Source: an uncultured Christensenella sp. (GTDB lineage: Bacteria; Bacillota; Clostridia; Christensenellales; Pumilibacteraceae). From it: 64,000 nucleotides of DNA. Position 1 is the first letter of the stretch; the number at the start of each line of letters is the position of its first letter. The stretch spans positions 56,255 to 120,254 of the forward strand of contig CAJUBY010000001.1 of assembly GCA_910585055.1 (NCBI GenBank), read 5' to 3'. The notes beneath the pieces are model-generated. The model saw nothing but the letters and a program-made list of their open reading frames with translations, did not search any database and had not been told where the DNA came from. Both the position numbers and the translations under genes were made by a program. Shown here piece after piece: positions 11,595-63,035 of the stretch.

Positions 11595-11703
11595 CAAAGT
11601 TACGCGTGGAATTGCGCGTACGGTAAGTCAATTACCAAATGCTCTTTATTCGGGTCTTACTCGAAGCGGGAGCGGCAATACTACTAAAAGGAGGTAGAGT
11701 AAT

Positions 11704-21093: not shown

Positions 21094-21288
21094 TAAAAAC
21101 GCCCCGAAAACTCGGGGCGAAAACAGCGACACAACTCGCGTCCATTCTTTTAACATCCGGACTGTGACCGTCGGTACGGGAATTTCACCCGATCGGGACC
21201 GTTTTCAACGCATACTCGATCTTGCGTTTACGGTCTTAGTAGACTATGACTACCGGTGGGGATTTTCGCCCCGCCCCAAAGAATGACT
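21094..21288 (-). promoter_or_regulatory. FMN riboswitch (RFN element) with terminator expression platform
   Basis: The minus strand reads CAUUCUUUGGGGCGGGGCGAAAAUCCCCACCGGUAGU...GGGUGAAAUUCCCGUACCGACGGUCACAGUCCGGAUGUUAAAAGAAUG. This matches the conserved RFN core and the P1 closure. It is followed by CGCCCCGAGUUUUCGGGGCGUUUUU (21094-21120). Confidence 0.85.
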
Positions 21289-28656: not shown

Positions 28657-28700
28657 GTAACAGACAACGGCGTCGGAAGAGAATATCTCCGCGCCGTTTT
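28657..28700 (+). promoter_or_regulatory. conserved leader hairpin plus U-tract (copy 1 of 3)
   Basis: GTAACAGACAACGGCGTCGGAAGAGAATATCTCCGCGCCGTTTT. Outer stem AACGGCG/CGCCGTT, inner stem GGA(A)GA/TCTCC, then U4. It starts 20 nt after the -10. Confidence 0.65.
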
Positions 28701-28764
28701 ATGTTACAAAATTATTTTATCCGGCGGAAGCCGTTAATGTTCAATCCAAAAAAAGGAGCAAAGG

Positions 28765-38922: not shown

Positions 38923-38963
38923 GTCAAGACAACGGCGTCGGGAGTGTTTTCCTACGCCGTTTT
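38923..38963 (+). promoter_or_regulatory. conserved leader hairpin plus U-tract (copy 2 of 3)
   Basis: GTCAAGACAACGGCGTCGGGAGTGTTTTCCTACGCCGTTTT. Outer stem AACGGCGT/ACGCCGTT, inner stem GGGA/TTCC, then U4. Confidence 0.65.
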
Positions 38964-39090
38964 ATAATAGACAAGATCAACGGCAAGAAAAACTGTATCG
39001 AGCCGGTATCCGTACCCGAAATGCACAAAAAGCGTAACGGGCACATGTAAAAAACAATAAAATATACAACGACCTCAAAAGGAGCAAAGA

Positions 39091-41223
39091 TAAGGCGATG
39101 GGGATCAAGAAAGAAACGAAGAAGCGGATATGCGCGGTGGCGGCGCTGGTAGGAAGCGTAAGCGCGGGCGGCGCGCTGGTAGCGTGCGGAAGCGAAGAAA
39201 AGCCTGTAGAGAAAGCTGGAGCGGAAGCGGGAGTGTATTACTTTGACGCGGGCGGAGAAGAGTATACGATGGCGTTGGGGGACGGAAAGCATGTAACGCT
39301 GATGATGGGCGCAGAGAAAAAAGAAGGGACGTACGGGATCAAAGACGGAGAGATCGAGATCAAGTTCGGAAAGGACGACGTAGCGAGAGGCGCGGTAAAG
39401 GAAACGGAGATCGCGCTGAAGTACGGCGGCCTGGATATGCGGTTTTACAAGAAAGTGTACTACGAAGTGAGGTACGACAGCGTAGACGGGAGCGAGATCG
39501 GGAGCGTAAGAGTGCTTAACGGGAAGCACGCGGAAAAGCCGGCGGATCCTGTAAAAGAGAACAGCATGTTTCTGGGGTGGTACGTAGACGAAGAGTATAC
39601 GATGCCGTATATATTCAGTGCGGAAGGAGTAAGCGGAGACATAACGCTGTACGCGCAGTGGGCGGAGCTGGTGCCCGGAGCACAGGAGTACGTCGTAAGA
39701 TTCGACTTAAACTACGAAACAGACGAGAAGATAGGGAACAAACAAACGATCGGAGGGAAACTGTACGATCTGCCGAAACCCGGAGGAAGAGAAGGGTACG
39801 AGTTTAAAGGGTGGTGGATAAGCGCGTACGAGGACGGGGAGAGACTGACGTCGGAAGTAACGAAAGAGAGCAGGATCGAAGAGAACAGAACGCTGTACGC
39901 GGTATGGGAAGAGAAAGGGAACGGGAACAGACTTAAGACGCCGCTGGTGAGCACGGAAGGGAAGACGGTACAGTGGAACAGAGTGGAAGGCGCAAGCTCG
40001 TATACGGTGGAAGTAGAGAACACCGCAGGCGAGAAAAGGGTGTACCAAGGACTGACGGCGACGCGGCAGGAATTGGAGCTGACGGAAGCGGGAGACTATA
40101 AGATAACGGTAACGGCGGTAAAGAGCGGAAACAGCGGAGAGAACTCGAGAGGAGGGGAAAGCTGGTACAGATACAAGGCGTTGGCGCGAGTGTCGATGTT
40201 CAGCGTGTCGGAAACGAGTTCGCTGGTATACAACGGGGTAGAGAACGCGGAAAGATATTACATAAAAGTGGAGTGCGGAAACGCGAGTCATAAACACGAT
40301 AGATACGACAACGGAACGTCTACGTATTATAACTTTGCGAACTGCACGATGCAGGAAGGCGGAATCAAGTTCACGGTAACGGCGGAAGCGGAAGGCTGGG
40401 CAAGCTCGACGTCGGTAACGTACGTGTACAACAGGATACTGGACGGAGTAAAAGAAGTAGCGTACGAGAAAGAAACGCAGAGCATAAGATGGGCGAGCGT
40501 AAAGAACGCGACGGGATATATCGTGGAAGTGAACGGAGAAAGAGAAGAGATAACGGGGACGGTATACAGTGTAAAGGGATACGACCCGGGAGAACTGAAG
40601 ATAAAAGTAACGCCGAAGACGAAGGGATATAACAGTCCGAAAGGGACGGAGATAACGGTACGGAAGGAAGAGTTGGCGGCGCCGAAAGGACTGGAACTGA
40701 CTGGGACGGAATTGAGCTGGGACGCGGTAAAAGGCGCGGAAGGATATACGGTAAAGATCGGAGAGAAGACGTATGAAACGGATCGGAACGTATACGATAT
40801 AACGGAAGCGATAGCGGAAGAGCCGAGTGCAAGCGGCGAATACCGAATAAGCGTAAAGGCGAACGGAGAGAAAGGATCGGAGTACAGCGACGAGATAAGG
40901 GTAAGAGCGCAGACGTTGCGCGGAACGCTGAAGTACGGCGACGGGAAAGTGCGCTGGGGGAGCGTGATCGGAGCAACGGAGTACCGTGTACGAGTGAACG
41001 GCGGAGCGGAGAAGACAATAACCGGCGGAACGGAGAGCGAAGTAACGCTTACACGACGCGGCATAAACGAGATAGAAGTGATGTACGCGGCGGGAGAGAC
41101 GGAGAGCGCGTGGGAGAAGCTGGAAGTGACGGGCTATGCCGTGGAGTTCGACAGCCGCGGCGGCACGGCTGTAGACACCGTTTACCTCGCTACCGGCGAC
41201 AGACTTGTCTTGCCCTCCGCACC
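39091..41223 (+). repeat. 2,133-bp direct repeat, copy B
   Basis: See copy A. Confidence 0.85.
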
Positions 41224-48996: not shown

Positions 48997-49034
48997 AACA
49001 CCGCCCGACAAAACATGTCGGGCGGTGTTTTTTT
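48997..49034 (+). terminator. rho-independent terminator after giant gene 2
   Basis: AACACCGCCCGACA-aaac-ATGTCGGGCGGTGTT followed by T7. Confidence 0.85.
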
Positions 49035-49058
49035 AATCCAAAGCGTTCCTTTTTTTGC

Positions 49059-49088
49059 TTGACAATGCATATAATATAGTGGTATAAT
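49059..49088 (+). promoter_or_regulatory. consensus sigma-A promoter of the MoxR/VWA/LRR operon
   Basis: TTGACA (49059-49064), 18-nt spacer, TGgTATAAT (-10 at 49083-49088). Confidence 0.65.
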
Positions 49089-49106: not shown

Positions 49107-49153
49107 GTAACAGACAACGGCGTCGGGAATCTTTTTCCCTTGCGCCGTTTTTT
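49107..49153 (+). promoter_or_regulatory. conserved leader hairpin plus U-tract (copy 3 of 3)
   Basis: GTAACAGACAACGGCGTCGGGAATCTTTTTCCCTTGCGCCGTTTTTT. Outer stem AACGGCG/CGCCGTT, inner stem GGGAA/TTCCC, then U6. The first 21 nt are identical to copy 1. Confidence 0.65.
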
Positions 49154-49272
49154 ATTCGGAACGGTCGGTCGGCAATATCAAAGCGGTAACGGGTCGGTCG
49201 GTCGCATAAGGTACGCACATAGCGTTTATATGCGGAACTGTGCAGCCTCGGGTTTACCGCAAAGGAGCGATC

Positions 49273-50283
49273 ATGGGACAGACATTCGAAAAGTATAAAA
49301 AACGGCTTATTCTCGAAGGCGTGATAAAATCATTGTTTTCGGGTCTTATCGTCGGATGCGGCGTAAACTTTACCGTAGCGTTCGTAACGTGGTTTACTGC
49401 GTTCGAAGGACTGTGGCTTGCGATAGGGCTGGGTATAGCCGCGCTGGCAGTATCGGCTCCGCTGTTTTATATTTTTAAGTTTAAGCCGACGTCCGAGGCT
49501 ATAGCGCGCAGGATCGACAGACTCGGACTGGACGAGCGTATCGTCACCATGAGAGAGCTGGAAAACGATACTTCGTACATCGCCATGCGTCAGCGCGAAG
49601 ACGCAATGCGGCATCTTGAAACCGTAAACGCAAAAAATATAAAGTTTAAATTTTCCGCGTTTTTGATAGCGCTTGTTATAGTCTGTCCCGTAGCGGCTGC
49701 CGGCATGACGACGGTTTCCGCGCTTTCGGACAGCGGTATAATTCCCGGTCCGATCGATCCGGGCGACGGCGACGAGAAGATAACGTATTACGAAGTGGAA
49801 TATACGGTAGACAACGACGATGCCGGCGAGATAATAGGCGCCGATCCCATACAGGTAGTCGCGGAAGGCGAAACCACGGAATGGGTAACGGCGGTCGCTG
49901 CCGAAGGCTGGCAGTTCGACGGCTGGGACGACGGTTATAAAGAGGCGACGCGCTGCGACATGGATATCACCGATAACATGGTGTTTACCGCGATGTTTAC
50001 GGAAGTCGAAGAGGGCGACGGCGACGAGGGCGAACCGGGCGATCAGCCCGACGATCAACCTGCCGATCCGAGCAACGGCGACAATAACGGCGATAACAAT
50101 AATTCCGGCACCCCGGGAGTGCCGCCCGATTTCGGATCGAGCAACATTATAGACGGCGACACGTACTATAAACTCGTATACGAAGAGTATTATCAAAAGG
50201 CTATGCAGTATCTTGCGGAAAATGAGGATATTCCCGATCATCTTCGCAAGATGATAGAATCGTACTTTAATATTTTGCTGTGA
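49273..50283 (+). CDS. membrane protein (3 predicted TM) with Flg_new-like ectodomain and acidic D/E/G/N/P linker
   Basis: The ATG at 49273 follows AAAGGAG. TM helices lie near residues ~15-75 and ~130-150. The ectodomain YYEVEYTVDNDDAGEIIG...EGWQFDGWDDGY...MVFTAMF resembles the Listeria-Bacteroides repeat. Confidence 0.6.
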   Translation: MGQTFEKYKKRLILEGVIKSLFSGLIVGCGVNFTVAFVTWFTAFEGLWLAIGLGIAALAVSAPLFYIFKFKPTSEAIARRIDRLGLDERIVTMRELENDTSYIAMRQREDAMRHLETVNAKNIKFKFSAFLIALVIVCPVAAAGMTTVSALSDSGIIPGPIDPGDGDEKITYYEVEYTVDNDDAGEIIGADPIQVVAEGETTEWVTAVAAEGWQFDGWDDGYKEATRCDMDITDNMVFTAMFTEVEEGDGDEGEPGDQPDDQPADPSNGDNNGDNNNSGTPGVPPDFGSSNIIDGDTYYKLVYEEYYQKAMQYLAENEDIPDHLRKMIESYFNILL

Positions 50284-50342
50284 TCTGCGGCAAATTTATA
50301 TAAGAAAAACAAATAATCAAACCGTATCGAGAGAGGTCAAAT

Positions 50343-51488
50343 ATGGTAACGGAAAAAGACATCACCAAATTCAGCGAGCAGTGCAAACAGATTTTTGCGC
50401 AGGTCGAGCGTGACGTAATAGGGCAAAAAGACATCGTGGAAGGCACCGTCATAGCCATGATCGCCGGCGGCAACGTATTGCTCGAGGGCGTTCCGGGCGT
50501 TGGCAAGACTCGTCTCGTTCGGTCGCTCGGTCGCGTTTTCAATCTGCCGTTTTCGCGTATCCAGTTTACGCCCGATCTTATGCCGGCGGACGTGACAGGT
50601 ACGAATATAATAGTCAAGGACGAAAGCGGCAATTCGTCGTTCCGTTTTCAGCCCGGACCTATATTCAGCAACATAATTCTTGCGGACGAGATAAACCGAG
50701 CGACGCCCAAAACGCAGAGCGCGCTGCTCGAAGCCATGCAGGAACATACAGTTACGGTAATGGGCGTGTCGCGTACTCTCAACGAGCCGTTTTTCGTTCT
50801 TGCGACGCAGAACCCTATAGAACAGGACGGTACGTATCCTCTGCCGGAAGCGCAGATGGACCGTTTTATGTTTAAGCTCATAGTCAAAAACCCGAGTTTG
50901 GACGAGCTTATGGACATAGTCAATATGACGCAAAAGACCATGGCGGAAGTTGCGGACTCGGCGTGCAGCGGAAACGAGCTGCTTGCAATGCGCGCCACGG
51001 CAAACCAGATCCCCGTTGCGCAGGATGTAATGCGATATGCCATGACATTGTGTTCGGCGACTCATCCCGACAGCGAGTGCGCGTCGGAAGCCGCCAAAAA
51101 ATACGTTAGGTTGGGTGCAAGTCCCCGTGCAGGTCAGGCGCTTATTTCGGCGGCAAAAGTAAAAGCGCTGTTAAAGGGACGTTTCAACGTGGCGTACAGC
51201 GACGTCAACGAGCTTGCGTATCCCGTTCTGCGTCACCGCATGAAGATGAATTTCGAAGCGATAGCCGGAAGAGTTTCCGCCGACGAAGTCATTCGTATGA
51301 TACTGGACGAGCTTGCCAAAAAGTATAAGATAGGATCTGCAAACGAACAGCCCGAAACGCCTGTTTCCGCGCAACAGACCGGCAACGACGATGCCGCGCA
51401 GCAGACTTCCGAACAGTCGGACAGCGCGGAACAGCCGGCAAACGAAGAAAAAGGCGAAAAGAAGAAACGGAGATTCGCTAAAAAATAA
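50343..51488 (+). CDS. MoxR-family AAA+ ATPase with ~50-aa low-complexity Lys-rich tail
   Basis: Walker A LLEGVPGVGKT and Walker B with the sensor region ILADEINRATPKTQSALLEAMQE. RBS GAGAGG. Confidence 0.9.
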   Translation: MVTEKDITKFSEQCKQIFAQVERDVIGQKDIVEGTVIAMIAGGNVLLEGVPGVGKTRLVRSLGRVFNLPFSRIQFTPDLMPADVTGTNIIVKDESGNSSFRFQPGPIFSNIILADEINRATPKTQSALLEAMQEHTVTVMGVSRTLNEPFFVLATQNPIEQDGTYPLPEAQMDRFMFKLIVKNPSLDELMDIVNMTQKTMAEVADSACSGNELLAMRATANQIPVAQDVMRYAMTLCSATHPDSECASEAAKKYVRLGASPRAGQALISAAKVKALLKGRFNVAYSDVNELAYPVLRHRMKMNFEAIAGRVSADEVIRMILDELAKKYKIGSANEQPETPVSAQQTGNDDAAQQTSEQSDSAEQPANEEKGEKKKRRFAKK

Positions 51489-52387
51489 TGAAGGTCTCTT
51501 ACTTAAACGATGACTTTTTCAGTCGGTTGGAGACTTTGGCGTTAAATCTGCGTACCGATCTGTCCGGATTTTTCGGAGGCAAACACCTTGTCCGTACATA
51601 CGGTCAAACGGTGGAGTTTGCCGATTATCGGGAATACCAGTTGGGCGACGACATTCGGCGTATCGATTGGAATTTGTACAGCAGGTTTGAAAAGTTTTTC
51701 ATAAAGCTGTTTACCGACGAAAGACAAATGCATGTCCGGATTTTTTTGGACTGCTCGGCTTCCATGGGAAAAGCCGATCCGCAAAAGGCTGCGTACGCCG
51801 TAAGTGCGGCGGCGGCTTTGGGGTTTTTGGCTGTCCATAATACCGATAAACTGTCTTTCAAACTGATCAAGGGCAATACTGCCGAAGATCCGTTCGGTAC
51901 TATAGTGGGGAAAACATCGTTTTTCCGTGCGATAGGCGAGCTCGAAAACGTGCAGTTCGCCGGCGAATCGGATTTGGCGTCCGCCGTGACCGGGTGTGCG
52001 GATACCGGCGGCAACGACGGTTTGACCGTTATAATTTCCGACTTTTTTACGGAAAGCGAATGGAAAAAAGCGGTCGATTACCTTACTTATAAAAAGCGAC
52101 AGGTGCTTTTGTTGCAGGTAATGACACCCGACGAAGTCGAACCTATGTATTACGGCAGAGTCAATCTTATAGATTCGGAATCGGCGGATCTTGCCGATCC
52201 CAAAAATATGAAAATGCGGATAACACGCGCCATGCAGATGGCGTACCGCGAAGCGTTGGACGACATGATCGGCGAACTGCGCACTTACTGTACTTCGCGT
52301 GGCGCCGAGTTTATTTCGGTACAGACCGACAAACCCATCGAAAAAATGTTGTTCGGCGAGTTATTGAAAGTAGGTATGATCTCATGA
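51488..52387 (+). CDS. DUF58 domain protein (VWA-like, MoxR partner)
   Basis: FADYREYQLGDDIRRIDWNLYSR... and a MIDAS-like LDCSASM. There is a 1-nt overlap with the moxR stop (TAATG). Confidence 0.85.
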   Translation: MKVSYLNDDFFSRLETLALNLRTDLSGFFGGKHLVRTYGQTVEFADYREYQLGDDIRRIDWNLYSRFEKFFIKLFTDERQMHVRIFLDCSASMGKADPQKAAYAVSAAAALGFLAVHNTDKLSFKLIKGNTAEDPFGTIVGKTSFFRAIGELENVQFAGESDLASAVTGCADTGGNDGLTVIISDFFTESEWKKAVDYLTYKKRQVLLLQVMTPDEVEPMYYGRVNLIDSESADLADPKNMKMRITRAMQMAYREALDDMIGELRTYCTSRGAEFISVQTDKPIEKMLFGELLKVGMIS

Positions 52388-54294
52388 GTTTGCTAACGCC
52401 CCTGGGACTTTTGGCGCTTATCGGGATATTTGTCCTTATTCTGATATACCTGCTGAAGCCCAATTATCAACAAAAGGTGGTTTCCAGTACGTTCGTATGG
52501 AAGTTGAGCCTTAAGTACAAAAAGAAGCGGTTGCCGATCAGCAGATTCCGCAATATACTGTTGCTCATTTGCCAGCTGCTCGTGATCGCGGCGTGCGCGC
52601 TGTTACTTACGCAACCGTTCATCCCTTCGGAATCCAACGAACATAAGATCGAAAAAATAATAATTCTCGATGCGTCGGCGAGCATGCTTGCCGAATCGGG
52701 CAATGCGACGCGCTTCGAGCGCGCTGTGGCGGAAGCGACGGAATTGTCGGAAGAGGTGCTATCTAGCGCCGACGGCATTATCACCGTCATTCTTGCCGGC
52801 GAAACGCCGGCATACGTTCTGGAACGGGTAGGGTCGACTGCGGCTGCCGACGTCGAGACCGCGCTCGGCGCGTTGATCGAGTACGGCGAGTCGGCTTGCA
52901 CATACGGTACCGTCGACATGGACGGCGCGGTGGATCTTGCCGGCAACGTGCTGGTGCAGAATCCCGACGCGGAGATCATCCTGTATACGGACACGGAATA
53001 TATCGACAAGGCGGGAATAACGGTCAAAAAGATGACCGATGCCGCGGACTGGAATGCGGCGGTGCTCGGTTGTTCCGCGGAAGTGATAGACAGAAACTTT
53101 TATACATTCAAGATAAATGTTGCGAGTTACGGCAGAGATACAGAGCTCAAGGTAGTGTGCGAGATATCGGGGGTGAACGCCGAAGAACGTACGGTAAGCC
53201 TGGAGCAAAACGTGTACTGCAACAACGACGAAACCGTCACCGTTATATTCGATGAGTTTAACAGCGATATAGCCGTGTATTCTTACGATACCGTGCATGT
53301 GTATTTCGATAACGTTATAGATTCGTTCGAGTACGACGACGAATTCTGGCTGTACGGCGGAAAAAAGGAAAAGCTGCGTATACAGTACGCCAGCTCGGGC
53401 ATAAATCCGTTTTTCGGCGCGGCGTTTATGGCTTTACGCGAAAATCTGCGTCCTACGTGGGATATCGAAATAAAGGAAGTCACCAACGGCAAGCCCGAAA
53501 CTTCCGGGTTCGACTTTTATATGTTCGAATACGACGCCATTCCGTCGACGATGCCCACCGACGGCGTTGTCATGTTTTCGTCTCCGCAAAAAGCATTGCC
53601 GACAGCATCGGGTATAGTGCTGAAAAACATAGTGCCCGTAAAGAATGCCGTAATCGACCGCGGCAATCCGCATCCGTTTACCGAATATCTGCCGCTCGAC
53701 AATCTGGGCGTAAACAGATATCAGAGCATTACGGTCGCCGACGGATTCGAAGAATTGCTTTATCTCGAGGGCAATCCGGTATTTTTGGTCAAAAACGAGG
53801 AAGCCGTTAAGATAATAGCGATGTTGTTCGGCGTGGATATGTCGTGGACGGCGGTATTTGTCGATTTCCCGATGCTTATGGGAAATATATTCGAATATCT
53901 GTTCCCGGCGACTACCGATAAATATGTCTACGACATCGGAGAATCGGTGTTGCTCAAAGCGCGCGGTAGCAGTATGACGGTAAGTTCCGATACTCTAAAC
54001 GAAGTTTATACGGAGCATATGCAATCGATAAAACCGACGGCGCCCGGGTCGTACAATGTACGTCAGCCGATCATGGGCAACGATGCCGCCAACGTAAAGG
54101 TAATGACTTCGAACTTCTTTGTAAAAGTGCCGGCGTCGGAGAGTAACATCCGCGCCGTAGAGGAAGGGCTTAAACGTCTCGACAGAAAGACCAAGTCCAA
54201 ACCGGCCGATATAGATATAGTGTTATATTTCGCAATAGCGCTCGTCACGCTGTTGTTTGCGGAACGCCTGCTGCAATCCAGAGATCAATTTTAA
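52384..54294 (+). CDS. BatA-type N-terminal double-TM domain plus VWA domain membrane protein
   Basis: The N-terminus MSLLTPLGLLALIGIFVLILIYLLKP...FVWKL resembles the aerotolerance BatA N-terminal domain. MIDAS IILDASASM and a C-terminal TM are present. ATGA overlap with the DUF58 gene. Confidence 0.75.
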   Translation: MSLLTPLGLLALIGIFVLILIYLLKPNYQQKVVSSTFVWKLSLKYKKKRLPISRFRNILLLICQLLVIAACALLLTQPFIPSESNEHKIEKIIILDASASMLAESGNATRFERAVAEATELSEEVLSSADGIITVILAGETPAYVLERVGSTAAADVETALGALIEYGESACTYGTVDMDGAVDLAGNVLVQNPDAEIILYTDTEYIDKAGITVKKMTDAADWNAAVLGCSAEVIDRNFYTFKINVASYGRDTELKVVCEISGVNAEERTVSLEQNVYCNNDETVTVIFDEFNSDIAVYSYDTVHVYFDNVIDSFEYDDEFWLYGGKKEKLRIQYASSGINPFFGAAFMALRENLRPTWDIEIKEVTNGKPETSGFDFYMFEYDAIPSTMPTDGVVMFSSPQKALPTASGIVLKNIVPVKNAVIDRGNPHPFTEYLPLDNLGVNRYQSITVADGFEELLYLEGNPVFLVKNEEAVKIIAMLFGVDMSWTAVFVDFPMLMGNIFEYLFPATTDKYVYDIGESVLLKARGSSMTVSSDTLNEVYTEHMQSIKPTAPGSYNVRQPIMGNDAANVKVMTSNFFVKVPASESNIRAVEEGLKRLDRKTKSKPADIDIVLYFAIALVTLLFAERLLQSRDQF

Positions 54295-54309
54295 AGGAGG
54301 ACGGTAGCA

Positions 54310-57096
54310 ATGACGAACTTTTCGATAGATTTTACCAATCCTTGGCTGCTGTTCCTTCTTATACCGGCAGTGTTCATCGTGCTGTTCCCGTATTTCCGTA
54401 TGGCAAAACGGTATAGACGCACGCGCAACCGTATAGTGTCCATGGTACTGTGCATCACGGTAATGGTACTGGGTATCTCCGTACTTTCGGGGCTTCATTT
54501 CGATTACGATGTCGTAAACAACAACAACGAAGTGATATTGCTAATCGATGCGTCTTACAGCGGCGGCAATGTCGAAAACGAAAAGGAAGATTTTGTTCAG
54601 GGCGTCATAAACAGCAGTTCCGAAAACTTTAAAGTGGGCATTGTGACGTTCGGTTACGATACCGTTTATGCCGTACCGATAACAGCGGAAACGGACGGGA
54701 TATACAGGAAATATCTCGCCGCGCCGCGTCCGGACGACAGCGCATCCGATATATCCGGCGCTCTCGAGTATACGCGTACGCTTTTCAAAAATCCGGAGAC
54801 CGCAAAGATAGTGCTAATAAGCGACGGTCTGGAAACGGACGGAAGTGCGCTTTCGGTCATCCGTTCTATTGCCGCGGAAGGCATAAAAGTCGATACGGCT
54901 TGTTTCACGGCGGAACGTACGGAGTCGGAAGTTCAGTTGGTGGATATAACGTTGCCCAAAACCAATATCGCAGTGGGCGATAAGTTCAATGTATCGCTTA
55001 TGGTACTTAGTTCGTATCAGGGCAAAGCGACTTTTACCATGTACGATACCGTGTTCGACGACGAAATGAACGAAAGCACGCAGGTCGTTGCCGGCGTTTC
55101 GGATTTCGATTTGAAAACGGGCGAGCAAACGGTTACCGTAGAGCATGAGTTTAACGAGCCGGGAATGCACAGGCTGCATTTTTCGGTCGAGTCGGCCGGC
55201 GATACGCTTATGCAGAATAACGGATATTATTCGTATATCGATCTGCAGGTTTACGATAAAGTGCTTATAATCGAGCGCACTGCGGGCGAGTCGCAAGCTT
55301 TCGGCGATATACTCGCGGAAAAATACGAAACGGTCGATACCGTGACGGTGACCGATGCCGAAAACATGCCGCAAACCGTCGATGCCGTTCGTGAATACGA
55401 CCAAGTCGTAATGTTCAATATTTCCAATCTGGATATGCCGCAGGGCTTCGAGGCGGTACTCAATTCCTATGTGTCGGACTTCGGCGGCGGCATGCTTACC
55501 GTAGGCGGAAACAAAGAAGAAAACGGTAAGGAAGTCGCAAACACTTATAACAGAGAAGCGATGCTTCAGTCCGAATATTATCAGGCAATGTTGCCCGTTC
55601 AAGCTGTCGATTATACGCCGCCGCTCGGCACGGTCGTTATTATCGACCGGTCCGGCAGTATGATGTCCAACGATGCCACCACCGGAAAAAGGCTGTTTGA
55701 TCTTGCTAAGGAAGGCGCCAAGTCCTGTCTGTATGCGATGACGGAACGCGACTGGTGCGGAATAATGACTTTGGAAACGGGTTACAGCGAAGAGCTTACC
55801 CTTACGCCCCTTACTTTGCAGCATAAAATAGTGGAAGCAATAGACGCCATAAGCGACGAAGGCGGCGGAACTGCGTTCGCTCCGGCTATAGCGCAGGCAG
55901 GCAGAGCTTTGCGTGCGCTTAAAGAAGTCGAGAAAAAACATATAATCCTTGTGACCGACGGCGAGCCGGGAGATTCTTTCGATACCTATAACGCGGCTAT
56001 CGCGGAAAACACTAAAAACAATATAACTTTTTCCATAGTCGTAGTAGGCAATACCAACAGAAAAGATTTGGAGATCGCAGCGGAAGAAACGGGTAAAGGT
56101 CATTTTTATAAAGTAACAAACGGCGAAGAGCTTACGCGTATCATGCGCGAAGACCTTACCGTTCCCGAGATAAAAGATCTTATTTTCGACGAAAACGGAT
56201 TTACGCCAAGGATAGGGACGCACACGTCGGTCGTCAACGGCGTGCTCGATCTTATTACCGGAGAAAACGCCGAAGAGATGCCCAAAATGTACGGATACTA
56301 CGGCACCAAGCTTAAAAGCGGCGAAAACATAAAAGTCGATACTCCGCTGATGGGTGAATTTGTACCGCTGTACGCGCAGTGGGCATACGGCAAAGGTAAT
56401 GTCGGAAGCTTTATGAGCGATCTCAACGGAAATTGGTCTAGAGACTTTTTGGCTAGCAATGTCGGGAAGGCGTTTATATACGGTATGGTAAATGCGCTGT
56501 TCCCGACGGAGGATATAAGATCGCGCGATCTCGACGCTTTACTCAAGGAAGATAACTATAGTACGCAAATGAGCGTATATACGGAACTCAAGGAAACAGA
56601 AACGCTGGAGATAACCGTAACGCCGCCGCAGACCGACGGGAGAGCGGAGTCGGATTCGACCGTTATCAAGTTTACGGCAAAGGACAATTACAGCAGGGTA
56701 ACATTTAAAAATACCCTACCGGGCATTCACCGTATAGTACTGCAAAAGAAAGACGCGCAGGGTAATGTTTTATCGGAATTCGTTACCTACCGTGCTTTCT
56801 CGTATTCCAAGGAGTACGATGTATTTGCCGATACCGAAGCAGGTACGGCGCTTATGACCGATCTTGCAAAGGGCGGCAACGGGAAGGTTCTGACCGATCC
56901 GTGGGAAGCGTACGACAATTCGGTGGAGAACTTCCACAGAACGTACGATCCGCGCGTGCCGTTTATAATAATCGCGCTGATACTGTTCCTGCTCGACATT
57001 GCCGTACGCAAGTTCAAGTTTAAATGGCTGCACGAGATAATCCGCGACCGTAAAAACAGAAAGAACAACGCAAACGGCGAAAGGAGTGCGTCATGA
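54310..57096 (+). CDS. 928-aa membrane protein with two VWA domains and a central GATase1-like segment
   Basis: BatA-like N-terminal TMs. VWA1 reads LLIDASYSGG. VWA2 reads VIIDRSGSMMS...GGGTAF...ILVTDGEPGD. A C-terminal TM is present, and the RBS is AAAGGAGG. The GATase1-like call is by eye only. Confidence 0.75.
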   Translation: MTNFSIDFTNPWLLFLLIPAVFIVLFPYFRMAKRYRRTRNRIVSMVLCITVMVLGISVLSGLHFDYDVVNNNNEVILLIDASYSGGNVENEKEDFVQGVINSSSENFKVGIVTFGYDTVYAVPITAETDGIYRKYLAAPRPDDSASDISGALEYTRTLFKNPETAKIVLISDGLETDGSALSVIRSIAAEGIKVDTACFTAERTESEVQLVDITLPKTNIAVGDKFNVSLMVLSSYQGKATFTMYDTVFDDEMNESTQVVAGVSDFDLKTGEQTVTVEHEFNEPGMHRLHFSVESAGDTLMQNNGYYSYIDLQVYDKVLIIERTAGESQAFGDILAEKYETVDTVTVTDAENMPQTVDAVREYDQVVMFNISNLDMPQGFEAVLNSYVSDFGGGMLTVGGNKEENGKEVANTYNREAMLQSEYYQAMLPVQAVDYTPPLGTVVIIDRSGSMMSNDATTGKRLFDLAKEGAKSCLYAMTERDWCGIMTLETGYSEELTLTPLTLQHKIVEAIDAISDEGGGTAFAPAIAQAGRALRALKEVEKKHIILVTDGEPGDSFDTYNAAIAENTKNNITFSIVVVGNTNRKDLEIAAEETGKGHFYKVTNGEELTRIMREDLTVPEIKDLIFDENGFTPRIGTHTSVVNGVLDLITGENAEEMPKMYGYYGTKLKSGENIKVDTPLMGEFVPLYAQWAYGKGNVGSFMSDLNGNWSRDFLASNVGKAFIYGMVNALFPTEDIRSRDLDALLKEDNYSTQMSVYTELKETETLEITVTPPQTDGRAESDSTVIKFTAKDNYSRVTFKNTLPGIHRIVLQKKDAQGNVLSEFVTYRAFSYSKEYDVFADTEAGTALMTDLAKGGNGKVLTDPWEAYDNSVENFHRTYDPRVPFIIIALILFLLDIAVRKFKFKWLHEIIRDRKNRKNNANGERSAS

Positions 57097-59870
57097 AAAA
57101 ACTCCGATTGTTGATAATTGCGTGTTTTATGATTTGTTTTGCCGCGCTGGCGCTTGCTTGCGGAGGTGACGAATTGCCTGCGCTTGAGAGGCCGCGCGGT
57201 TTAAAGATAGACGAAGCTACTCAGGTACTTACGTGGAACGAGGTAGATAACGCACGCGGTTATACGGTGTCGTTCGGCAGCGAGCAGCGCAGTACACGGT
57301 CCAACAGTTATGCTTTGGCAAATCTGGCGCCGGGCGAGTACAAAATACGCGTAAAAGCCAATGGCGACGACAGAAAGTATTCCGATTCTCCGTGGTCGGC
57401 ATCGAAACTTTTTACCAAAGACGTGGAATCGGGTTTGTCGTACAGGCTTATCAACAGCAAGACCGAATACGAAGTAGCCGGCGGCGGATCCGCGTCCGGT
57501 TCCGTGGTAATAGAAAACGTTTTCCGCGGTAAACCCGTAACAAGGATAGCCGATTCGGCGTTTTACAATAATTCCCGTATAACCGATATAGTAATAGGCA
57601 GTAACGTAAAAAGTATCGGTGTCCGAGCGTTTTATAACTGCACGGTCCTCAAAAGCGTCACGATCCCCGACAGCGTAACGAGTATAGGCGAGTATGCGTT
57701 TCAGAGTTGTCGCGCGCTGGAAAGTATTGATATACCCGACAGTGTAACGGAGATCAAAGACTATACTTTCTGTTACTGTATAGGGCTTACGGATATAGTG
57801 ATAGGCGGCGGCGTGTCGAAGATAGGCGCGTATGCATTCAACGGCTGCGTATCGCTGGAAAAGTTGGCAGTGCCCGACAGCGTAATATCGATCGGCGAAA
57901 ATGCTTTTACCGCATGTACCAAACTGGACGAAGCGGTAATCGGAACGGGCGTTGCGGAAATAGGCAAGTATGCTTTTTCGCAGTGCTCGGCGCTCCAAAC
58001 ACTGTTGCTCGGAGACGGACTTAAGAGTATAGGCGAAGGCGCGTTCAATAAATGTTCGGCGTTACAGCAGGTCAGTCTGCCCGACAGCGTCGAATCTTTG
58101 AGCGATTTTGTTTTTTACGACTGTACCGAACTTTACGACATAACTCTCGGTACGGGAATGCGCAGTATAGGTCAAAACGCGTTTGTTGCGACGCAGCTTT
58201 GGACGTCGTCGGGCGATATCGTGTATGCGGACGGGTGGCTTGTCGGGAGCAAGACAAAAGATCGAGCGGAGTTAACCATACCCGACGGAACGGTGGGTAT
58301 CGCGGCAAATGCGCTCAGCCAAACCAAAAGCCTTACGGCAGTAGCTTTCCCCGGCAGTGTCAAATATATAGGTAGCGGAGCGTTTGCCGGTTGTCCGTCG
58401 TTGATGACCGTTATATTGGGTGCGGGCGTAAAGACGGTGGGAGCCAATGCGTTTGCCGCTTGTCAGTATTTGGATAATGTAAAGTTTTCCGATGCGCTGA
58501 CCGAAATAGGCAATTACGCGTTTTACAACTGTCCGTATTTGGCAGCCGTAGAACTACCGGACAGTCTGCGTAGCATAGGTACGTATGCTTTTTACGGCAC
58601 AAAAATGTGGAAAGATTCCGCTACGGATGTGGTATATGCCGACGATTGGGCGGTGGGACTTAAAAACAATACCGCGCAGGTAGCGGAGATAAAAGAAGGT
58701 ACCGTCGGTATTTCCAACTATGCGTTTTATAACAGTCCGCGGTTGATGTCGGTAGTTATGCCGAAATCGCTTAAGTATTTGGGCCGCGCAGCGTTTTACG
58801 GTTGTCAAATGCTGTTCGTAGTGGACGGATTGCCGGATACTTCGGTGGAGACCGTATCAGACTATGCGTTTTACGGCTGTGTTTATTTGTTGTCGGTAGG
58901 TCTGCCGCAAAACGCGACGGCGATCGGTCGGTCGGCGTTTTACGGTTGCGGTACGCTCGGTAAGCTCACTTTTCCCGACAGTTTGAGATCGATAGGCGAT
59001 TATGCGTTTTTCGGCAGCGGAACGGAAGAGTTTGCCGCCGGGAACGGAGTGGAAACGATAGGCGATTATGCGTTTGCGAAATGCCCCAAGCTTGTTTCGG
59101 TCACGCTTACGGACAGCGTTACGGAGCTGGGCGCGCATGTTTTCGACGGAAGCGAGGCGCTTGAATCGGTATCGATCGGAGCAGGACTTACCGCGCTACC
59201 CGAATATGCGTTCCGCGGCTGTACGGCTCTTAAAAGAGTCGAACTGCCCGAAAACATAAAGTCGATAGGCAAGTATGCGTTCCGTAACTGTACGGCGCTC
59301 GAACGTTTGGGTCTGGGCGGAACGGAATATATAGGATCGTATGCTTTCGGCGGCTGCGACGCTTTAAAAGTCGTAGCTTTCCCCGACAGCGTTAAAAATA
59401 TCGATACTTATGCGTTTTATAAATGCGGTTCGCTTACGAGCGCTATAATGCGCGCAGGTATCGAGAGCGTGGGCAGACATGCATTTTACGGTTGTAAACA
59501 GCTTGTAGTATACTTCGAGCCGAACGATAAAACTATTACCGAAGGTTGGGACAGCCGTTGGAATTCGTCCTACCGTCCCATGTTTTACGGTTGTGTTATT
59601 TCCGACGACGTGTCCGATCCGTATATAAAGGCGTTTACCGTCAACAGTTCCGCAATTGTCGGAGTAGACGCTACGCGTATGCTCACACCGCCTTCGCGCT
59701 ACGGCTATACGTTTGTAGGTTGGTCGGAGACGGAAGGCAGCGACGTTGCCGGTTACGACGCCAGCGGATTGTTGAATGCGCCGGAAGGCAAAACGTTGTA
59801 TTCGGTTTGGACGGAATACATTCCCGAAGAGCCCGACGAAGAGCAAACGCCCGACGAACTCGCGGATTAG
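57093..59870 (+). CDS. BspA-type LRR surface lipoprotein (925 aa) with N-terminal FN3-like and C-terminal Flg_new-like modules
   Basis: Signal MKKLRLLIIACFMICFAALALAC. The FN3-like module reads LTWNEVDNARGYTVSFG. An LRR_5 array follows. The C-terminal module reads GYTFVGWSETEGSD...KTLYSVW. ATGA overlap with the preceding VWA gene. Confidence 0.88.
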   Translation: MKKLRLLIIACFMICFAALALACGGDELPALERPRGLKIDEATQVLTWNEVDNARGYTVSFGSEQRSTRSNSYALANLAPGEYKIRVKANGDDRKYSDSPWSASKLFTKDVESGLSYRLINSKTEYEVAGGGSASGSVVIENVFRGKPVTRIADSAFYNNSRITDIVIGSNVKSIGVRAFYNCTVLKSVTIPDSVTSIGEYAFQSCRALESIDIPDSVTEIKDYTFCYCIGLTDIVIGGGVSKIGAYAFNGCVSLEKLAVPDSVISIGENAFTACTKLDEAVIGTGVAEIGKYAFSQCSALQTLLLGDGLKSIGEGAFNKCSALQQVSLPDSVESLSDFVFYDCTELYDITLGTGMRSIGQNAFVATQLWTSSGDIVYADGWLVGSKTKDRAELTIPDGTVGIAANALSQTKSLTAVAFPGSVKYIGSGAFAGCPSLMTVILGAGVKTVGANAFAACQYLDNVKFSDALTEIGNYAFYNCPYLAAVELPDSLRSIGTYAFYGTKMWKDSATDVVYADDWAVGLKNNTAQVAEIKEGTVGISNYAFYNSPRLMSVVMPKSLKYLGRAAFYGCQMLFVVDGLPDTSVETVSDYAFYGCVYLLSVGLPQNATAIGRSAFYGCGTLGKLTFPDSLRSIGDYAFFGSGTEEFAAGNGVETIGDYAFAKCPKLVSVTLTDSVTELGAHVFDGSEALESVSIGAGLTALPEYAFRGCTALKRVELPENIKSIGKYAFRNCTALERLGLGGTEYIGSYAFGGCDALKVVAFPDSVKNIDTYAFYKCGSLTSAIMRAGIESVGRHAFYGCKQLVVYFEPNDKTITEGWDSRWNSSYRPMFYGCVISDDVSDPYIKAFTVNSSAIVGVDATRMLTPPSRYGYTFVGWSETEGSDVAGYDASGLLNAPEGKTLYSVWTEYIPEEPDEEQTPDELAD
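57537..59520 (+). repeat. BspA-type LRR array of the 925-aa protein (approximate bounds)
   Basis: Periodic LRR_5-like units. Confidence 0.65.
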
Positions 59871-59890: not shown

Positions 59891-59932
59891 AAACAGCCTG
59901 CGACGGGTTTAGCGTTGCAGGCTGTTTTTTTT
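59891..59932 (+). terminator. rho-independent terminator ending the MoxR/VWA/LRR operon
   Basis: AACAGCCTGC-15 nt-GCAGGCTGTT followed by T8. Confidence 0.85.
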
Positions 59933-60218: not shown

Positions 60219-63035
60219 ATGGATCGAACAAAACGGAAAAACCGATTTGCGCCGTTGGTGTTATTATTGTGCGCGGCGGTTATTTTTACTTTGTTCGCCG
60301 TGGGGTGCGGCGACAAAAAAGGCGGTATCCAATCGCGCCCGAGCGTACTGTCCGTGCCGACGGTGACAGTCGACGGCGTGGGGCTTGCAAGTTGGGCGGC
60401 TGTACCGAACGCATCGGGGTACGCGTATATCGTCGACGGCGGAGAAACGACGGCTACGAACGATCGATCGGTCCTGTTGCATAACGGGCAAAGCATTCGC
60501 GTAAAAGCGGTCGGGGACGGCAAAAAATTTATAGACAGCGAGTATTGCGCATCGGTCTTATACACACTGCCGGAAGAAGAAACGACCGTGTTTTCGGGAA
60601 CGACCGAAGTCGGCGCGACGGTCACGCTGACTACCGACGCGCACGCGTATAACGTTACGGCGGATAACGGCGAATTTTCGATCGCGGTGCCCAAAACCGA
60701 AACGCCGTTGTCGATAGCATCGGAGAAATACGGATATTTTACATATCGAACGGAGATCGCGGTTTCGACGTCGTTCTATGAATTGCCGTTGGTCGGGAGC
60801 GTGACGTCGTCCGATCCCGATACCGAAATAACGGGCGACAGTTTTTCCGCATTGCGGTGTTCGTACTATAAGAGATCGGGCGGCAAGGTAAACATTCGGT
60901 TCACCGATCCTGCCAAAGACGGACAGGTGATAAAGTTAAAGTTGACTACGTTCGGCGGATATGACGGTAAATTAGCGCACGGTGCGGCGAGTAACGGTAC
61001 GCCGTTGAATTCGGGTACAAACGGACTGTCCGATATCGACGGGTATTTCTCGATAAAGATAGGCAGTTATTCGTGCCGTTTTATGTCCGACGGATCTACG
61101 ACCGGATTGGAAGCGGCGAGCGTATCCCCGTATTTATCCATGTTCACCGCGCTGGCACAAGAAACCGATTCCACAGATTTTGCGATTGCGTTTGACGGCG
61201 GTAAAACTCACTATTTCGCCAAACAGCCCACGGAAGAGAAATATATGCGTATCGGGCGTAATAATGCGACTCCCGATATAGTGGAGTTGAGCTTTGGCGG
61301 CTATGACGCGTTTGCGCTGAATTTGGAATTCGCCGATTTTGTTGTGGAAAACTCGGCAACGGCATTTATCGCCGATGCAATAACCGACGGAGGCTTTACC
61401 GCCGTCAACTCCGCGGTAAGGCGTAACGGGGACGGATCGGTATCCGCTGTTATAGGCGACGGTTCTTCGAGCGGATATTTGTGCGATCGATCTCGATCAT
61501 ACGATCTTACCGAAGGCACGCTTACGCTTAAAACAAAGGTGTATTCGTACGGCGGATCGTGGCAGTTTCACGGATTTTATATAGTCGATCGCGATACGGA
61601 TAAACATTATAATATAGGTATAACGCAGGGCAATAATATTTGGCTGTCCTGGTCGAACGAAGACAGAGACTTTAACGGATTTCCCGGTCGGGTGCCCGTT
61701 TCAGATACGTCCTGTCGCGGCACGTTCGGTTCTTACAACAACCACGGCGGCTGGCTCAACAGTAGTACCGCATATATCACGTCATTCGAATTGAAACTTG
61801 TGTTAAACGGCGAACTTGCCGATCTTTTCCTGGACGGTAAACGTATAGTCCGAGTCGACGTTCGCGAATTGTTCGACAAAAACACCACGTCGGACGGCAA
61901 ACACAGCGGTGCGGCATCGACGGTAAATTTGCCGTCGAATAACGTTTGCGTCGGCTTGTACGCGTTTAGCGATCCCGGTAGATACAGAACGCTGTTCGAC
62001 GGCTTTACGGCGGAATTTTCCGAAACGGCGGATATTGAACGCAAGACCGGCGATTCGGGTTGGAAAACGCAGATATACAACAAAGGCGTTCCGCTTTTTC
62101 GAAACTTTGTTTTGAATGGCAATATCGAAATTGCGTCCGCAGGAGAAAACGCACGCGCGATGTTCGGTTTCGGCGACGACGAATTCGGATTGTTTACGGA
62201 TACGAACGGAACGGTATCGGCGGCTTACGGTAAGGACGGCGATGTGACGGCGTCCGAAAACGAAAACGATAAATTCGATTCGGGATTCGGATTGACCGTC
62301 GGGTTCGAACTCGCGGTCACCGACAACGCGGCGGCGTTGTTTATAGACGGCGCTCTGCGGCTCGTTTACAACGGGATCGGCGAGCTTGATCCCGTCGAAT
62401 TTTATGCGCTCGGTTGTGATATGTCGTTGACGGACATGAACGTGTTGTTGCCGGGCGACGACGGTTATGATTCCATTGTCGATTTCGTATCCGAAACCGT
62501 TGCCCAGCATCCCGACGTCGGGTTCGCAAACATCGGATCTACGCGCCGAAGCAAACCGGTGATAGGAATTGCGAGCACCGGCACGGTAACGGTTACTCAA
62601 GCCGAAAACGCGGAACTTGTATATTCGATAGACGGCTGCGATTATAAACCGTATGCCGAAGGGATAGTCCTTAAAAAGGGACAGCGAATTACGGTCAAAG
62701 CGCTCGGCGACGGGAAAACTGTAAGCGCCGCGCAGGCTTCCGCCGTTTATTACGAGTTCGAAGCGGTCGAAAACGGCGGACGCGTTACCGCGACCCGGTA
62801 TAACGGAACGATCACCGTTACGACCTGTGCCGAAGCGCGCGAAGAAGTTTTTATTATAGCAGTCGCAGATAAAGCGGATATTTACTCTTGGCTCGACGGC
62901 GGCGCGCTTGCTGTCGTGCAGACGGCGGCGGACGGCAACGGCACGGTGACCGCAGAGCTTGAAACGGATGCGCAAAGCGTAGCGTGGGTATTCGTCATTA
63001 CCGAAGGCGCGGCGTATGCCGTGGAGGTGAAATAA
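60219..63035 (+). CDS. 938-aa surface lipoprotein with FN3-like modules at both ends
   Basis: Lipobox TLFAVGC. The N-terminal module reads LASWAAVPNASGYAYIVDG...IRVKAVGDGK. The C-terminal module reads LVYSIDGCDYKPY...ITVKALGDGK. A CarboxypepD_reg-like segment follows the first module. The central ~500 aa are unassigned. Confidence 0.7.
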   Translation: MDRTKRKNRFAPLVLLLCAAVIFTLFAVGCGDKKGGIQSRPSVLSVPTVTVDGVGLASWAAVPNASGYAYIVDGGETTATNDRSVLLHNGQSIRVKAVGDGKKFIDSEYCASVLYTLPEEETTVFSGTTEVGATVTLTTDAHAYNVTADNGEFSIAVPKTETPLSIASEKYGYFTYRTEIAVSTSFYELPLVGSVTSSDPDTEITGDSFSALRCSYYKRSGGKVNIRFTDPAKDGQVIKLKLTTFGGYDGKLAHGAASNGTPLNSGTNGLSDIDGYFSIKIGSYSCRFMSDGSTTGLEAASVSPYLSMFTALAQETDSTDFAIAFDGGKTHYFAKQPTEEKYMRIGRNNATPDIVELSFGGYDAFALNLEFADFVVENSATAFIADAITDGGFTAVNSAVRRNGDGSVSAVIGDGSSSGYLCDRSRSYDLTEGTLTLKTKVYSYGGSWQFHGFYIVDRDTDKHYNIGITQGNNIWLSWSNEDRDFNGFPGRVPVSDTSCRGTFGSYNNHGGWLNSSTAYITSFELKLVLNGELADLFLDGKRIVRVDVRELFDKNTTSDGKHSGAASTVNLPSNNVCVGLYAFSDPGRYRTLFDGFTAEFSETADIERKTGDSGWKTQIYNKGVPLFRNFVLNGNIEIASAGENARAMFGFGDDEFGLFTDTNGTVSAAYGKDGDVTASENENDKFDSGFGLTVGFELAVTDNAAALFIDGALRLVYNGIGELDPVEFYALGCDMSLTDMNVLLPGDDGYDSIVDFVSETVAQHPDVGFANIGSTRRSKPVIGIASTGTVTVTQAENAELVYSIDGCDYKPYAEGIVLKKGQRITVKALGDGKTVSAAQASAVYYEFEAVENGGRVTATRYNGTITVTTCAEAREEVFIIAVADKADIYSWLDGGALAVVQTAADGNGTVTAELETDAQSVAWVFVITEGAAYAVEVK

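Follow-up and report, generated by a model that had tools for sequence, protein, structure and literature searches.

Introduction

Few bacterial gene clusters without a known function are as widespread as the 'Bat-like' operons, which combine a MoxR-type AAA+ ATPase, a DUF58 protein and membrane proteins with von Willebrand factor type A (VWA) domains; their published mutants have weak phenotypes or none. In Mycobacterium tuberculosis the moxR1 operon is adjacent to ripA/ripB. MoxR1 was reported to bind RipA and to be required for RipA secretion (PMC4810496), and the authors describing the PFNA cluster of Bifidobacterium suggested that its MoxR protein assists a surface protein (PMC8430577). 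For the BatA-type protein BB0173 of Borrelia, the VWA domain was shown by experiment to be periplasmic (PMC5700661). Here we analyse a Bat-like operon in 64 kb of DNA (hereafter the window, to which all positions refer unless a locus is named) from an uncultured Christensenella sp. of the Pumilibacteraceae (contig CAJUBY010000001.1, 56,255 to 120,254), in which genes for a small membrane protein (gene 1), MoxR, a DUF58 protein, a BatA-type protein and a membrane protein with two VWA domains (double-VWA protein) are followed by a gene for a BspA-type leucine-rich repeat (LRR) lipoprotein.

The core of this operon is a cluster of a well-known kind (MoxR-proper, or Bat-like). Three features are new: an LRR_5 lipoprotein belongs to the operon as an obligate sixth member, the core includes gene 1, which outside its Flg_new_2 insert matches nothing in Pfam or the Protein Data Bank (PDB), and the lipoprotein slot is interchangeable. 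Literature searches on MoxR, DUF58, von Willebrand and leucine-rich repeat turned up no account of an LRR protein linked to a MoxR/VWA operon in bacteria, and a full-text search found no paper naming both BspA and MoxR.

Conservation of the LRR gene within the subfamily

A preliminary description of the window, made from its letters alone, had tied the operon to its last gene and expected an LRR gene to recur beside this operon type in relatives, which is what we found. The double-VWA protein has more than 1000 database homologues, the best 120 of them full-length at 46-57% identity. Two sets of loci were assembled, namely five genomic contexts fetched via individual double-VWA homologues and the best 80 of 306 relatives among one-per-species GTDB genomes, and annotated by open reading frame (ORF) calling and BLASTP against the window proteins, which gave 84 non-redundant loci in all. 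Gene order across these loci is gene 1, MoxR, DUF58, BatA, double-VWA and LRR lipoprotein, apart from the cassette variants noted below, and an LRR orthologue lies directly 3' of the double-VWA gene in all 83 loci that have downstream DNA. It is complete in 80 of them (33-50% identity, at least 95% coverage), cut by the contig end in two and split into two ORFs in one (L082:7264-10006, a frameshift or an assembly error), the remaining record having no downstream DNA. Further out, at 31-32% identity, an LRR protein also follows the double-VWA gene in both of the two deep LRR-type lineages. The five-gene core and its sixth, LRR_5 lipoprotein gene are thus inherited together, and recurrence in more than 80 species-level genomes places the arrangement far beyond chance. 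The carriers are gut Clostridia of mouse, rabbit, chicken, ruminants and humans, and include Candidatus Scatosoma, Candidatus Gallimonas, 'Subdoligranulum sp. CAG:314' and the cultured Anaerocaecibacter muris (Pumilibacteraceae).

Translational coupling of the last VWA gene to the LRR gene, as first proposed, holds in the window, where the two overlap by 4 nt, but is not general: they overlap in 15 of 80 loci, with a median gap of 19 nt, a gap of at most 20 nt in 41 loci and one of more than 60 nt in 20 of the 80. The stop of DUF58 and the start of BatA overlap in all 76 loci scored. On the other side of the core, an LRR-type ORF (at least 500 amino acids (aa) visible, as these ORFs usually run off the locus end) is found directly upstream on the same strand in 53 of the 55 loci with enough DNA; because its distance to gene 1 is always at least 96 nt (median 220 nt), this upstream LRR gene represents a separate transcription unit.

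Several genomes carry two old paralogous cassettes, each with an LRR gene of its own. The genome of CAG:314 has one complete cassette (L012) beside a satellite (L083, 2333-11061) that has kept gene 1, BatA, double-VWA and LRR and in which MoxR and DUF58 are gone. The LRR gene is therefore tied to the membrane part of the system, and the coexistence of the two cassettes suggests that the MoxR/DUF58 pair can act in trans. Two further variants are an additional 546-aa VWA gene between the double-VWA and LRR genes (L078:12769-14406) and a tandem duplicate of gene 1 (L054:3475-5984).

The LRR protein has diverged in step with the double-VWA protein, as closely as BatA has. The locus closest by double-VWA was among the top three closest for the LRR protein in 83% of loci, for BatA in 88% and for MoxR in 51%, and pairwise identities correlate at 0.80-0.88 among the four membrane and surface proteins. 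Agreement was scored on nearest neighbours, as star-like deep branching made the adjusted Rand index on clusters unstable when the cuts were coarse. The LRR gene does not stand beside the core by chance.

Sister branches and the variable lipoprotein slot

An exhaustive HMMER search among 50%-identity representatives returned about 1100 members of the double-VWA family at E <1e-30, and we looked up seven contexts at 31-33% identity. In one (P0260, L088) LRR_5 lipoproteins flank the core on both sides, with the upstream LRR gene and a Big_2 lipoprotein gene overlapping into the operon, and a second (P0268, L092) has an upstream LRR_5 lipoprotein and a downstream LRR_5 protein anchored by a transmembrane (TM) signal anchor in place of a lipobox. 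The others differ in their partners: a CotH lipoprotein and DUF1542 proteins come after the core in P0256 (L091), a Big_2 protein and a Flg_new-CotH lipoprotein lie upstream of it in P0243 (L095), and there is no surface-protein gene downstream in P0250 (L094), P0262 (L090) or P0266 (L093, 393-7272), the last of which passes from gene 1 to BatA without MoxR or DUF58. Distance clustering put all LRR-linked proteins in one group (141 sequences) and the other five outside it. Relatives of the non-LRR branch were absent from a viral sequence collection.

Profile searches recovered gene 1 in the core everywhere, with the N-terminal 150 aa and C-terminal ~100 aa kept and a middle ectodomain that varies and differs along with the type of partner. 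Among accessory proteins of these distant variants that have a recognisable domain, all carry a lipobox cysteine except one 300-aa DUF1542-like ORF and the downstream LRR protein of L092 with its signal anchor. As the sister contexts vary the partner and keep the core, the ancestral unit is the five-gene core, and the variable slot beside it is filled by surface lipoproteins, LRR_5 being the fixed choice of one large subfamily. The notion of a machine dedicated to LRR solenoids, put forward in the preliminary description, is weakened on this point: with CotH, Big_2 or DUF1542 lipoproteins, or no partner, in sister branches, the module is not LRR-specific, and the common factor is surface lipoproteins.

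Domain architecture and membrane topology

Pfam searches back each domain call made earlier for the six proteins, that of gene 1 being borderline, and the motifs GVPGVGKT, ILADEINR, IDW, DCSAS, DASAS, DASYS and DRSGS are all present in the translations. Gene 1 matches Flg_new_2 at 6.9e-5 (23.2 bits against a cut-off of 23.6), and its orthologues have a recorded match to this family. The protein begins with two long TM helices carrying a cytoplasmic three-helix insert (~aa 71-128), followed by a third TM helix, an outward Flg_new_2 beta domain, an acidic disordered linker (median net charge over orthologues about -13 in the most acidic 40-aa window) and, at the C-terminus, a conserved helical hairpin. 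An AlphaFold2 (AF2) model built from an alignment of database homologues (predicted local distance difference test score, pLDDT, 84.8) shows three TM helices, the helical insert on the cytoplasmic side, the beta domain, the linker and the hairpin, and had no fold match in the PDB.

MoxR contains AAA_3 (1.3e-61) and AAA_lid_2 (1.3e-16) domains with intact Walker A (GVPGVGKT) and Walker B (ILADEINR) motifs, and it has the adjacent DUF58 and VWA genes expected of the MoxR-proper type: the DUF58 gene overlaps the moxR stop and two VWA membrane genes come next. The DUF58 protein (PF01882, 2.3e-34, 118.9 bits against a cut-off of 23.4) is VWA-like with a DxSxS motif. Neither MoxR nor DUF58 has a TM segment, and both are predicted to be cytoplasmic. 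The BatA-type protein (PF07584, 4.6e-8, 33.8 bits against 25.9; VWA_2, 31.7 bits against 27; just under the cut-off of TIGR02226) has an N-terminal double-TM hairpin, a VWA domain plus an ectodomain of about 350 aa, and a C-terminal TM helix.

The 928-aa double-VWA protein matches VWA/VWA_2 twice (5e-24) and GATase1_like weakly. Its AF2 model (pLDDT 88.6) runs from a TM hairpin through VWA1, a beta-sandwich, an alpha/beta domain and VWA2 to a GATase1-like alpha/beta domain, a second beta-sandwich, a TM helix and a basic cytoplasmic helix. Sequence comparison with the PDB gave a single weak VWA match; Foldseek matched the VWA domains of the model to BatB of Bacteroides thetaiotaomicron (3ibs) and the aerotolerance-related protein 4jdu of B. 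fragilis, and further to the two-VWA mussel protein PTMP1, integrin I domains and the von Willebrand factor (vWF) A3 domain.

The LRR lipoprotein consists of a signal peptide with lipobox ALAC (Cys23), an FN3-like domain, an LRR_5 solenoid (2.2e-158, 519 bits, six stretches across about aa 150-800), a Flg_new-like domain and a variable tail, the fn3 and Flg_new matches both being sub-threshold. Its score against the NCBIfam adhesin family HupY/LrrG (203 bits) is far under the cut-off of 1250. A local NCBIfam match of aa 208-274 to the Mycoplasma mobile gliding 'leg' protein Gli349 (97 bits against a cut-off of 1750) probably reflects only common BspA-type repeats. A lipobox-type cysteine is present in 80 of 80 LRR orthologues, 75 by pattern and five by eye, and the protein is predicted from these features to be exported and lipid-anchored at the surface.

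The BatA-type and double-VWA proteins are built alike: a TM hairpin with a strongly basic loop at the N-terminus, a big middle region and a TM helix at the C-terminus, which in the double-VWA protein leads into a basic tail. From these basic loops and tails (the positive-inside rule) and the agreement with Borrelia BB0173, the VWA domains of both are predicted to face outward; taken with the TM hairpins and the lipoboxes, this would put them on the same, outer side of the membrane as the LRR protein.

Conservation of the cytoplasmic parts and of the MIDAS motifs

Over about 80 orthologues, majority identity is ~78% for MoxR and DUF58 and about 50% for the membrane and surface proteins; MoxR identity across the clade is 73-89%. 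Conservation within BatA and the double-VWA protein reaches 0.75-0.81 in TM helices and cytoplasmic loops, against 0.45-0.61 in the ectodomains, the most conserved parts of BatA being the basic loop (aa 25-56) and the TM helices (0.75-0.79). The cytoplasmic insert is likewise the top-conserved segment of gene 1. From this pattern we infer a conserved cytoplasmic and intramembrane engine with exposed domains that evolve faster.

The four DxSxS motifs of the metal-ion-dependent adhesion site (MIDAS) type listed in the preliminary description are all there: DCSAS in DUF58, DASAS in BatA, and DASYS and DRSGS in the double-VWA protein. No variation was seen in the DUF58 MIDAS residues D88, S90, S92 and D185 among 76 orthologues, or in either double-VWA motif among 83 sequences; the BatA motif is partly degenerate among orthologues. 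The acidic C-terminal tail of the LRR protein was considered as a MIDAS ligand and rejected, as it is clearly acidic in only 32 of 81 orthologues and the tail is the least conserved segment.

Operon structure, shared leader and neighbouring genes

The genes, coordinates and junction lengths given for the operon in the preliminary description agree in every value with our ORF calls and with the junctions read from the letters, and the one promoter/leader and one terminator postulated there were found as a perfect extended -10 promoter and an intrinsic terminator with a 15-bp stem (Table 1). Gene 1 and moxR are 59 nt apart, moxR and DUF58 overlap by 1 nt (TAATG) and DUF58 and batA by 4 nt (ATGA), the 15 nt between batA and the double-VWA gene contain AAAGGAGG, and GAAAGGAG stands just before the ATGA junction of the double-VWA and LRR genes. 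The listed ORF of gene 1 opens at GTG 49240; ATG 49273 is most likely the start, given the AAAGGAG ribosome-binding site 8 nt upstream and the match to orthologue N-termini. At the gene 1 stop codon, within the 59-nt gap, a weak hairpin of nine pairs (three G-C) with a T-rich tail could reduce read-through into the genes downstream.

Two genes for giant LRR_5/Flg_new lipoproteins precede the operon, each in a transcription unit of its own with the same leader. The terminator of the second lies at about 49001-49035, just ahead of the operon promoter. The operon and both giant genes have about 100 nt of promoter/leader in common: CAGACAACGGCGTCGG occurs three times with at most one mismatch (at 28661, 38926 and 49111), each time with a two-part hairpin and then a U-run, the outer stems being the same and the inner stems differing yet pairing. 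With folding energies of -21 to -26 kcal/mol and z-scores of -4 to -6.8, the shared leader looks like an attenuator or a 5' stabiliser; the operon copy matched no Rfam family. Upstream of gene 1 in related loci the motif is absent save for a few weak three-mismatch matches, and a scan for a hairpin and U-run in the same position was inconsistent, with none in 28 of 57 loci. The idea that the operon belongs to a regulon of giant LRR proteins therefore stands for this genome, through the shared promoter/leader, and does not extend reliably to relatives.

The two giant genes are 99.95% identical over 2147 bp, a stretch that takes in the ribosome-binding site and the initial ~709 codons (for the lipobox, three Flg_new domains and FN3-like domains), and the remainder of the proteins is ~47% identical, which suggests recent gene conversion or selection keeping the membrane-proximal module identical. 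Downstream of the operon, a 938-aa lipoprotein gene has its own promoter region without the shared leader. Its product has no above-threshold Pfam domain; over its first ~147 aa it is similar to the start of the LRR lipoprotein, a beta-domain motif that looks related (ITVKALGDGK) recurs near its C-terminus, and BLASTP found no counterpart in related loci.

Further upstream of the operon lie fusA, tuf, dnaB and other housekeeping genes, so that the locus is part of the core chromosome and no mobile island. An AT-rich stretch of about 2.5 kb (36-39% G+C against ~50% elsewhere; longest ORF at most 76 aa) lies just upstream of two short ORFs, which are followed by fusA and tuf, and contains no tandem repeats and no above-threshold Rfam match. 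Upstream of the gene for the S component of an energy-coupling factor (ECF) transporter, presumably a riboflavin transporter, there is a flavin mononucleotide (FMN) riboswitch, whose 89 bits exceed the gathering score.

Table 1. Positions of the operon, its signals and other features in the window.
Feature	Position	Strand	Basis or remark
Gene 1 (336-aa membrane protein)	49273-50283	+	Pfam, AF2, orthologue profiles
MoxR-type AAA+ ATPase gene	50343-51488	+	AAA_3, AAA_lid_2
DUF58 protein gene	51488-52387	+	PF01882
BatA-type membrane protein gene (BatA_N + VWA)	52384-54294	+	BatA, VWA_2
Double-VWA membrane protein gene	54310-57096	+	Pfam, AF2, Foldseek
LRR_5 (BspA-type) lipoprotein gene, 925 aa	57093-59870	+	LRR_5, lipobox
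Operon promoter, sigma-70-type	49059-49088	+	TTGACA, 18 nt, TG-n-TATAAT; 12/12 consensus, extended -10
Leader hairpin and U-run, promoter-proximal	49111-49155	+	motif CAGACAACGGCGTCGG, fold
Intrinsic terminator of operon	59891-59932	+	15-bp stem (stem part 59891-59927), 8 G-C pairs, T-run directly after
Giant LRR_5/Flg_new lipoprotein 1, 3285 aa	28772-38629	+	Pfam; lipobox LVAC; leader motif at 28661
Giant LRR_5/Flg_new lipoprotein 2, 3280 aa	39098-48940	+	Pfam; lipobox; directly upstream of operon
Shared leader copies	28661-28705, 38926-38965, 49111-49155	+	CAGACAACGGCGTCGG, hairpin, U-run
Weak hairpin at gene 1 stop codon	50274-50294	+	
Near-identical stretches of giant genes	28751-30897 and 39077-41223		2147 bp
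938-aa lipoprotein gene	60219-63035	+	lipobox AVGC
AT-rich stretch	9136-11700		
ECF-transporter S component gene	20281-21051	-	
FMN riboswitch	21141-21287	-	

A proposed membrane-spanning complex and the alternatives

The reading we prefer, with a probability of about 50%, is that the core proteins form a Bat-like, MoxR-powered complex spanning the cytoplasmic membrane, whose extracellular partner in this subfamily is the LRR lipoprotein. Inside the cell, a MoxR hexamer and the MIDAS-bearing DUF58 adaptor would engage the three membrane proteins at their conserved TM helices and at the conserved loops and tails in the cytoplasm. The outward domains, among them three VWA domains, of which two have an intact MIDAS, and the Flg_new_2 domain from gene 1, could together make up a docking platform on the outside of the membrane that depends on metal ions. 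This platform would bind the LRR lipoprotein of the operon and probably the neighbouring giant LRR/Flg_new lipoproteins, arranging them into a complex for surface adhesion or recognition. Hydrolysis of ATP in the cytoplasm would then assemble, remodel or switch this platform, and in sister lineages the same core would dock CotH, Big_2 or DUF1542 lipoproteins instead.

Several observations weigh against such a complex. Any gene with a stable place in an operon would also be expected to show synteny and co-divergence; a downstream partner gene is missing from three operons of the sister branches, so that the core can do without a lipoprotein encoded in cis; no conserved acidic candidate for a MIDAS ligand was found on the LRR protein; the topology is drawn from the positive-inside rule and one analogue; and deletion of the bat genes in Leptospira had no phenotype (PMC3557215). 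A bolder version of the complex, which we regard as quite unlikely, is an integrin-like 'inside-out' switch, in which MoxR and DUF58 would toggle the extracellular MIDAS/VWA domains to clamp or release LRR lipoproteins, the adhesins of >3000 aa included. If it were true, ATP would control surface adhesion or ligand capture in gut Clostridia, and one core would be re-used with interchangeable LRR, CotH, Big_2 and DUF1542 cargos.

The preliminary description had favoured a dedicated chaperone or anchoring machine, in which MoxR and the VWA proteins would fold, metal-load or export the LRR protein of the operon and the giant LRR proteins, for example with MoxR and DUF58 holding precursors for Sec export and the VWA ectodomains receiving them outside. 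The LRR linkage on which it drew is conserved, with LRR genes strictly kept on either side of the core, and the leader common to the operon and the giants fits it, as do the report that M. tuberculosis MoxR1 chaperones its exported neighbour RipA (PMC4810496) and the proposal that the PFNA MoxR folds the FN3 protein (PMC8430577). However, the same core is also found beside genes for CotH, Big_2 or DUF1542 lipoproteins or has no such partner, anchoring is superfluous because the LRR proteins carry lipoboxes of their own, and any role in folding or metal loading would have to be indirect, since MoxR is cytoplasmic and LRR proteins fold outside the cell, in a compartment out of its reach. LRR_5 proteins are, moreover, abundant in many bacteria that lack this module, and we consider a dedicated chaperone rather unlikely.

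Could the LRR gene be a passenger, a co-transcribed and co-regulated adhesin gene at the 3' end of the operon with no physical or mechanistic link to it? The region is rich in surface-protein genes, other lipoprotein and adhesin genes vary downstream, the gap between the double-VWA and LRR genes is wider than 60 nt in 20 of 80 loci, and some sister branches have no partner. Such a passenger is nevertheless hard to square with retention of the LRR gene in 85 of 85 cases, down to 31% identity, through divergence, cassette duplication (ancient paralogous cassettes) and loss of the ATPase genes (L083), and with the fact that it is never swapped for another LRR gene though its neighbours turn over; we therefore judge this explanation unlikely.

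A third possibility is a classical Bat function in aerotolerance, oxidative-stress resistance or envelope homeostasis, with the LRR lipoprotein replacing the tetratricopeptide repeat (TPR) scaffolds BatC and BatE. The BatA N-terminal domain, the VWA folds resembling B. thetaiotaomicron BatB and B. fragilis 4jdu, and a MoxR-DUF58 gene order typical of Bat loci all speak for it, and Bat proteins have been proposed to form complexes of vWF-type and TPR proteins, although in the same work the Leptospira bat deletion gave no oxidative-stress phenotype (PMC3557215). Against it, the six operon proteins contain no redox motifs or domains, BatD and TPR proteins are lacking, and the partners are adhesin-type surface proteins, which together make a classical Bat function very unlikely. 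A MoxR-vWA conflict or anti-phage system with LRR proteins as sensors, for which a secondary Pfam match to bpMoxR (2.3e-9) and the service of LRR domains as sensors in other immune systems might be cited, is extremely improbable, given that PADLOC gave no substantial hit, that Pfam searches showed neither an effector nor a beta-propeller nor another sensor-effector domain, that the locus has a core-chromosome position beside fusA, tuf and dnaB, and that every non-ATPase part is a membrane or surface protein.

Returning to the membrane-spanning complex, the subfamily gives Bat-like MoxR/VWA systems a concrete candidate partner, a specific extracellular protein of near-perfect conservation, which sister lineages exchange for other lipoproteins. 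Judging by sequence conservation, the ATPase would act on the membrane proteins at their cytoplasmic faces, and the cultured carrier Anaerocaecibacter muris CLA-AA-M11 makes the system experimentally approachable. The finding overturns no established view, and it has a bearing on how abundant, uncultured gut Clostridia display giant LRR adhesins.

Comparison with known systems

The Bat loci of Bacteroides and spirochaetes (moxR, DUF58, batA-batE; bb0170-bb0176 in Borrelia) resemble the operon in having MoxR and DUF58 followed by BatA-type, MIDAS-bearing VWA membrane proteins, in the VWA fold (BatB 3ibs and 4jdu), in a VWA domain outside the cytoplasmic membrane (BB0173; PMC5700661) and in including a solenoid repeat protein, which there is the TPR of BatB/C/E. 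They differ in that the host here is a monoderm member of the Clostridia, the second VWA protein is the 928-aa double-VWA protein with GATase1-like and beta-sandwich domains, gene 1 is present with no Pfam or PDB match beyond its Flg_new_2 insert, and the solenoid partner is a lipid-anchored LRR_5 protein. No TPR or BatD match was found in the six operon proteins or the flanking ORFs.

The moxR1 (Rv1479)-DUF58-VWA operon of M. tuberculosis is alike as a MoxR-proper operon beside the gene of an exported envelope protein; there, however, the partner is an NlpC/P60 peptidoglycan hydrolase exported by the twin-arginine translocation (Tat) pathway, and the membrane components are others. The PFNA cluster (pkb2-fn3-aaa-atp-duf58-tgm) likewise has MoxR and DUF58 in fixed order along with a polytopic membrane protein and, in FN3, a large surface protein, whereas it differs in its transglutaminase-like membrane protein, its Ser/Thr kinase, the lack of an LRR protein and a surface-protein gene upstream of MoxR. 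As Pfam searches found neither Pkb2 kinase nor transglutaminase domains in the operon proteins, only the MoxR-DUF58 pair is common to both. MoxR-vWA-beta-propeller ternary conflict systems (PF20030, bpMoxR; PMC7159879) also join MoxR to VWA partners, and the bpMoxR match is weak here; unlike them, our operon has no beta-propeller and no effector, consists of membrane and surface proteins and lies in the core genome.

In fold, the VWA domains described here are also like integrin I domains and the vWF A3 domain. Extracellular VWA/MIDAS domains of metazoa bind ligands that include LRR solenoids, the pair of von Willebrand factor A1 and platelet GPIb-alpha being an example, and short conserved tails on the cytoplasmic side allow integrin ectodomains to be switched from there. 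The likeness to these metazoan VWA-LRR pairs is a functional analogy that implies no homology of the complexes, and the engine here is an AAA+ ATPase.

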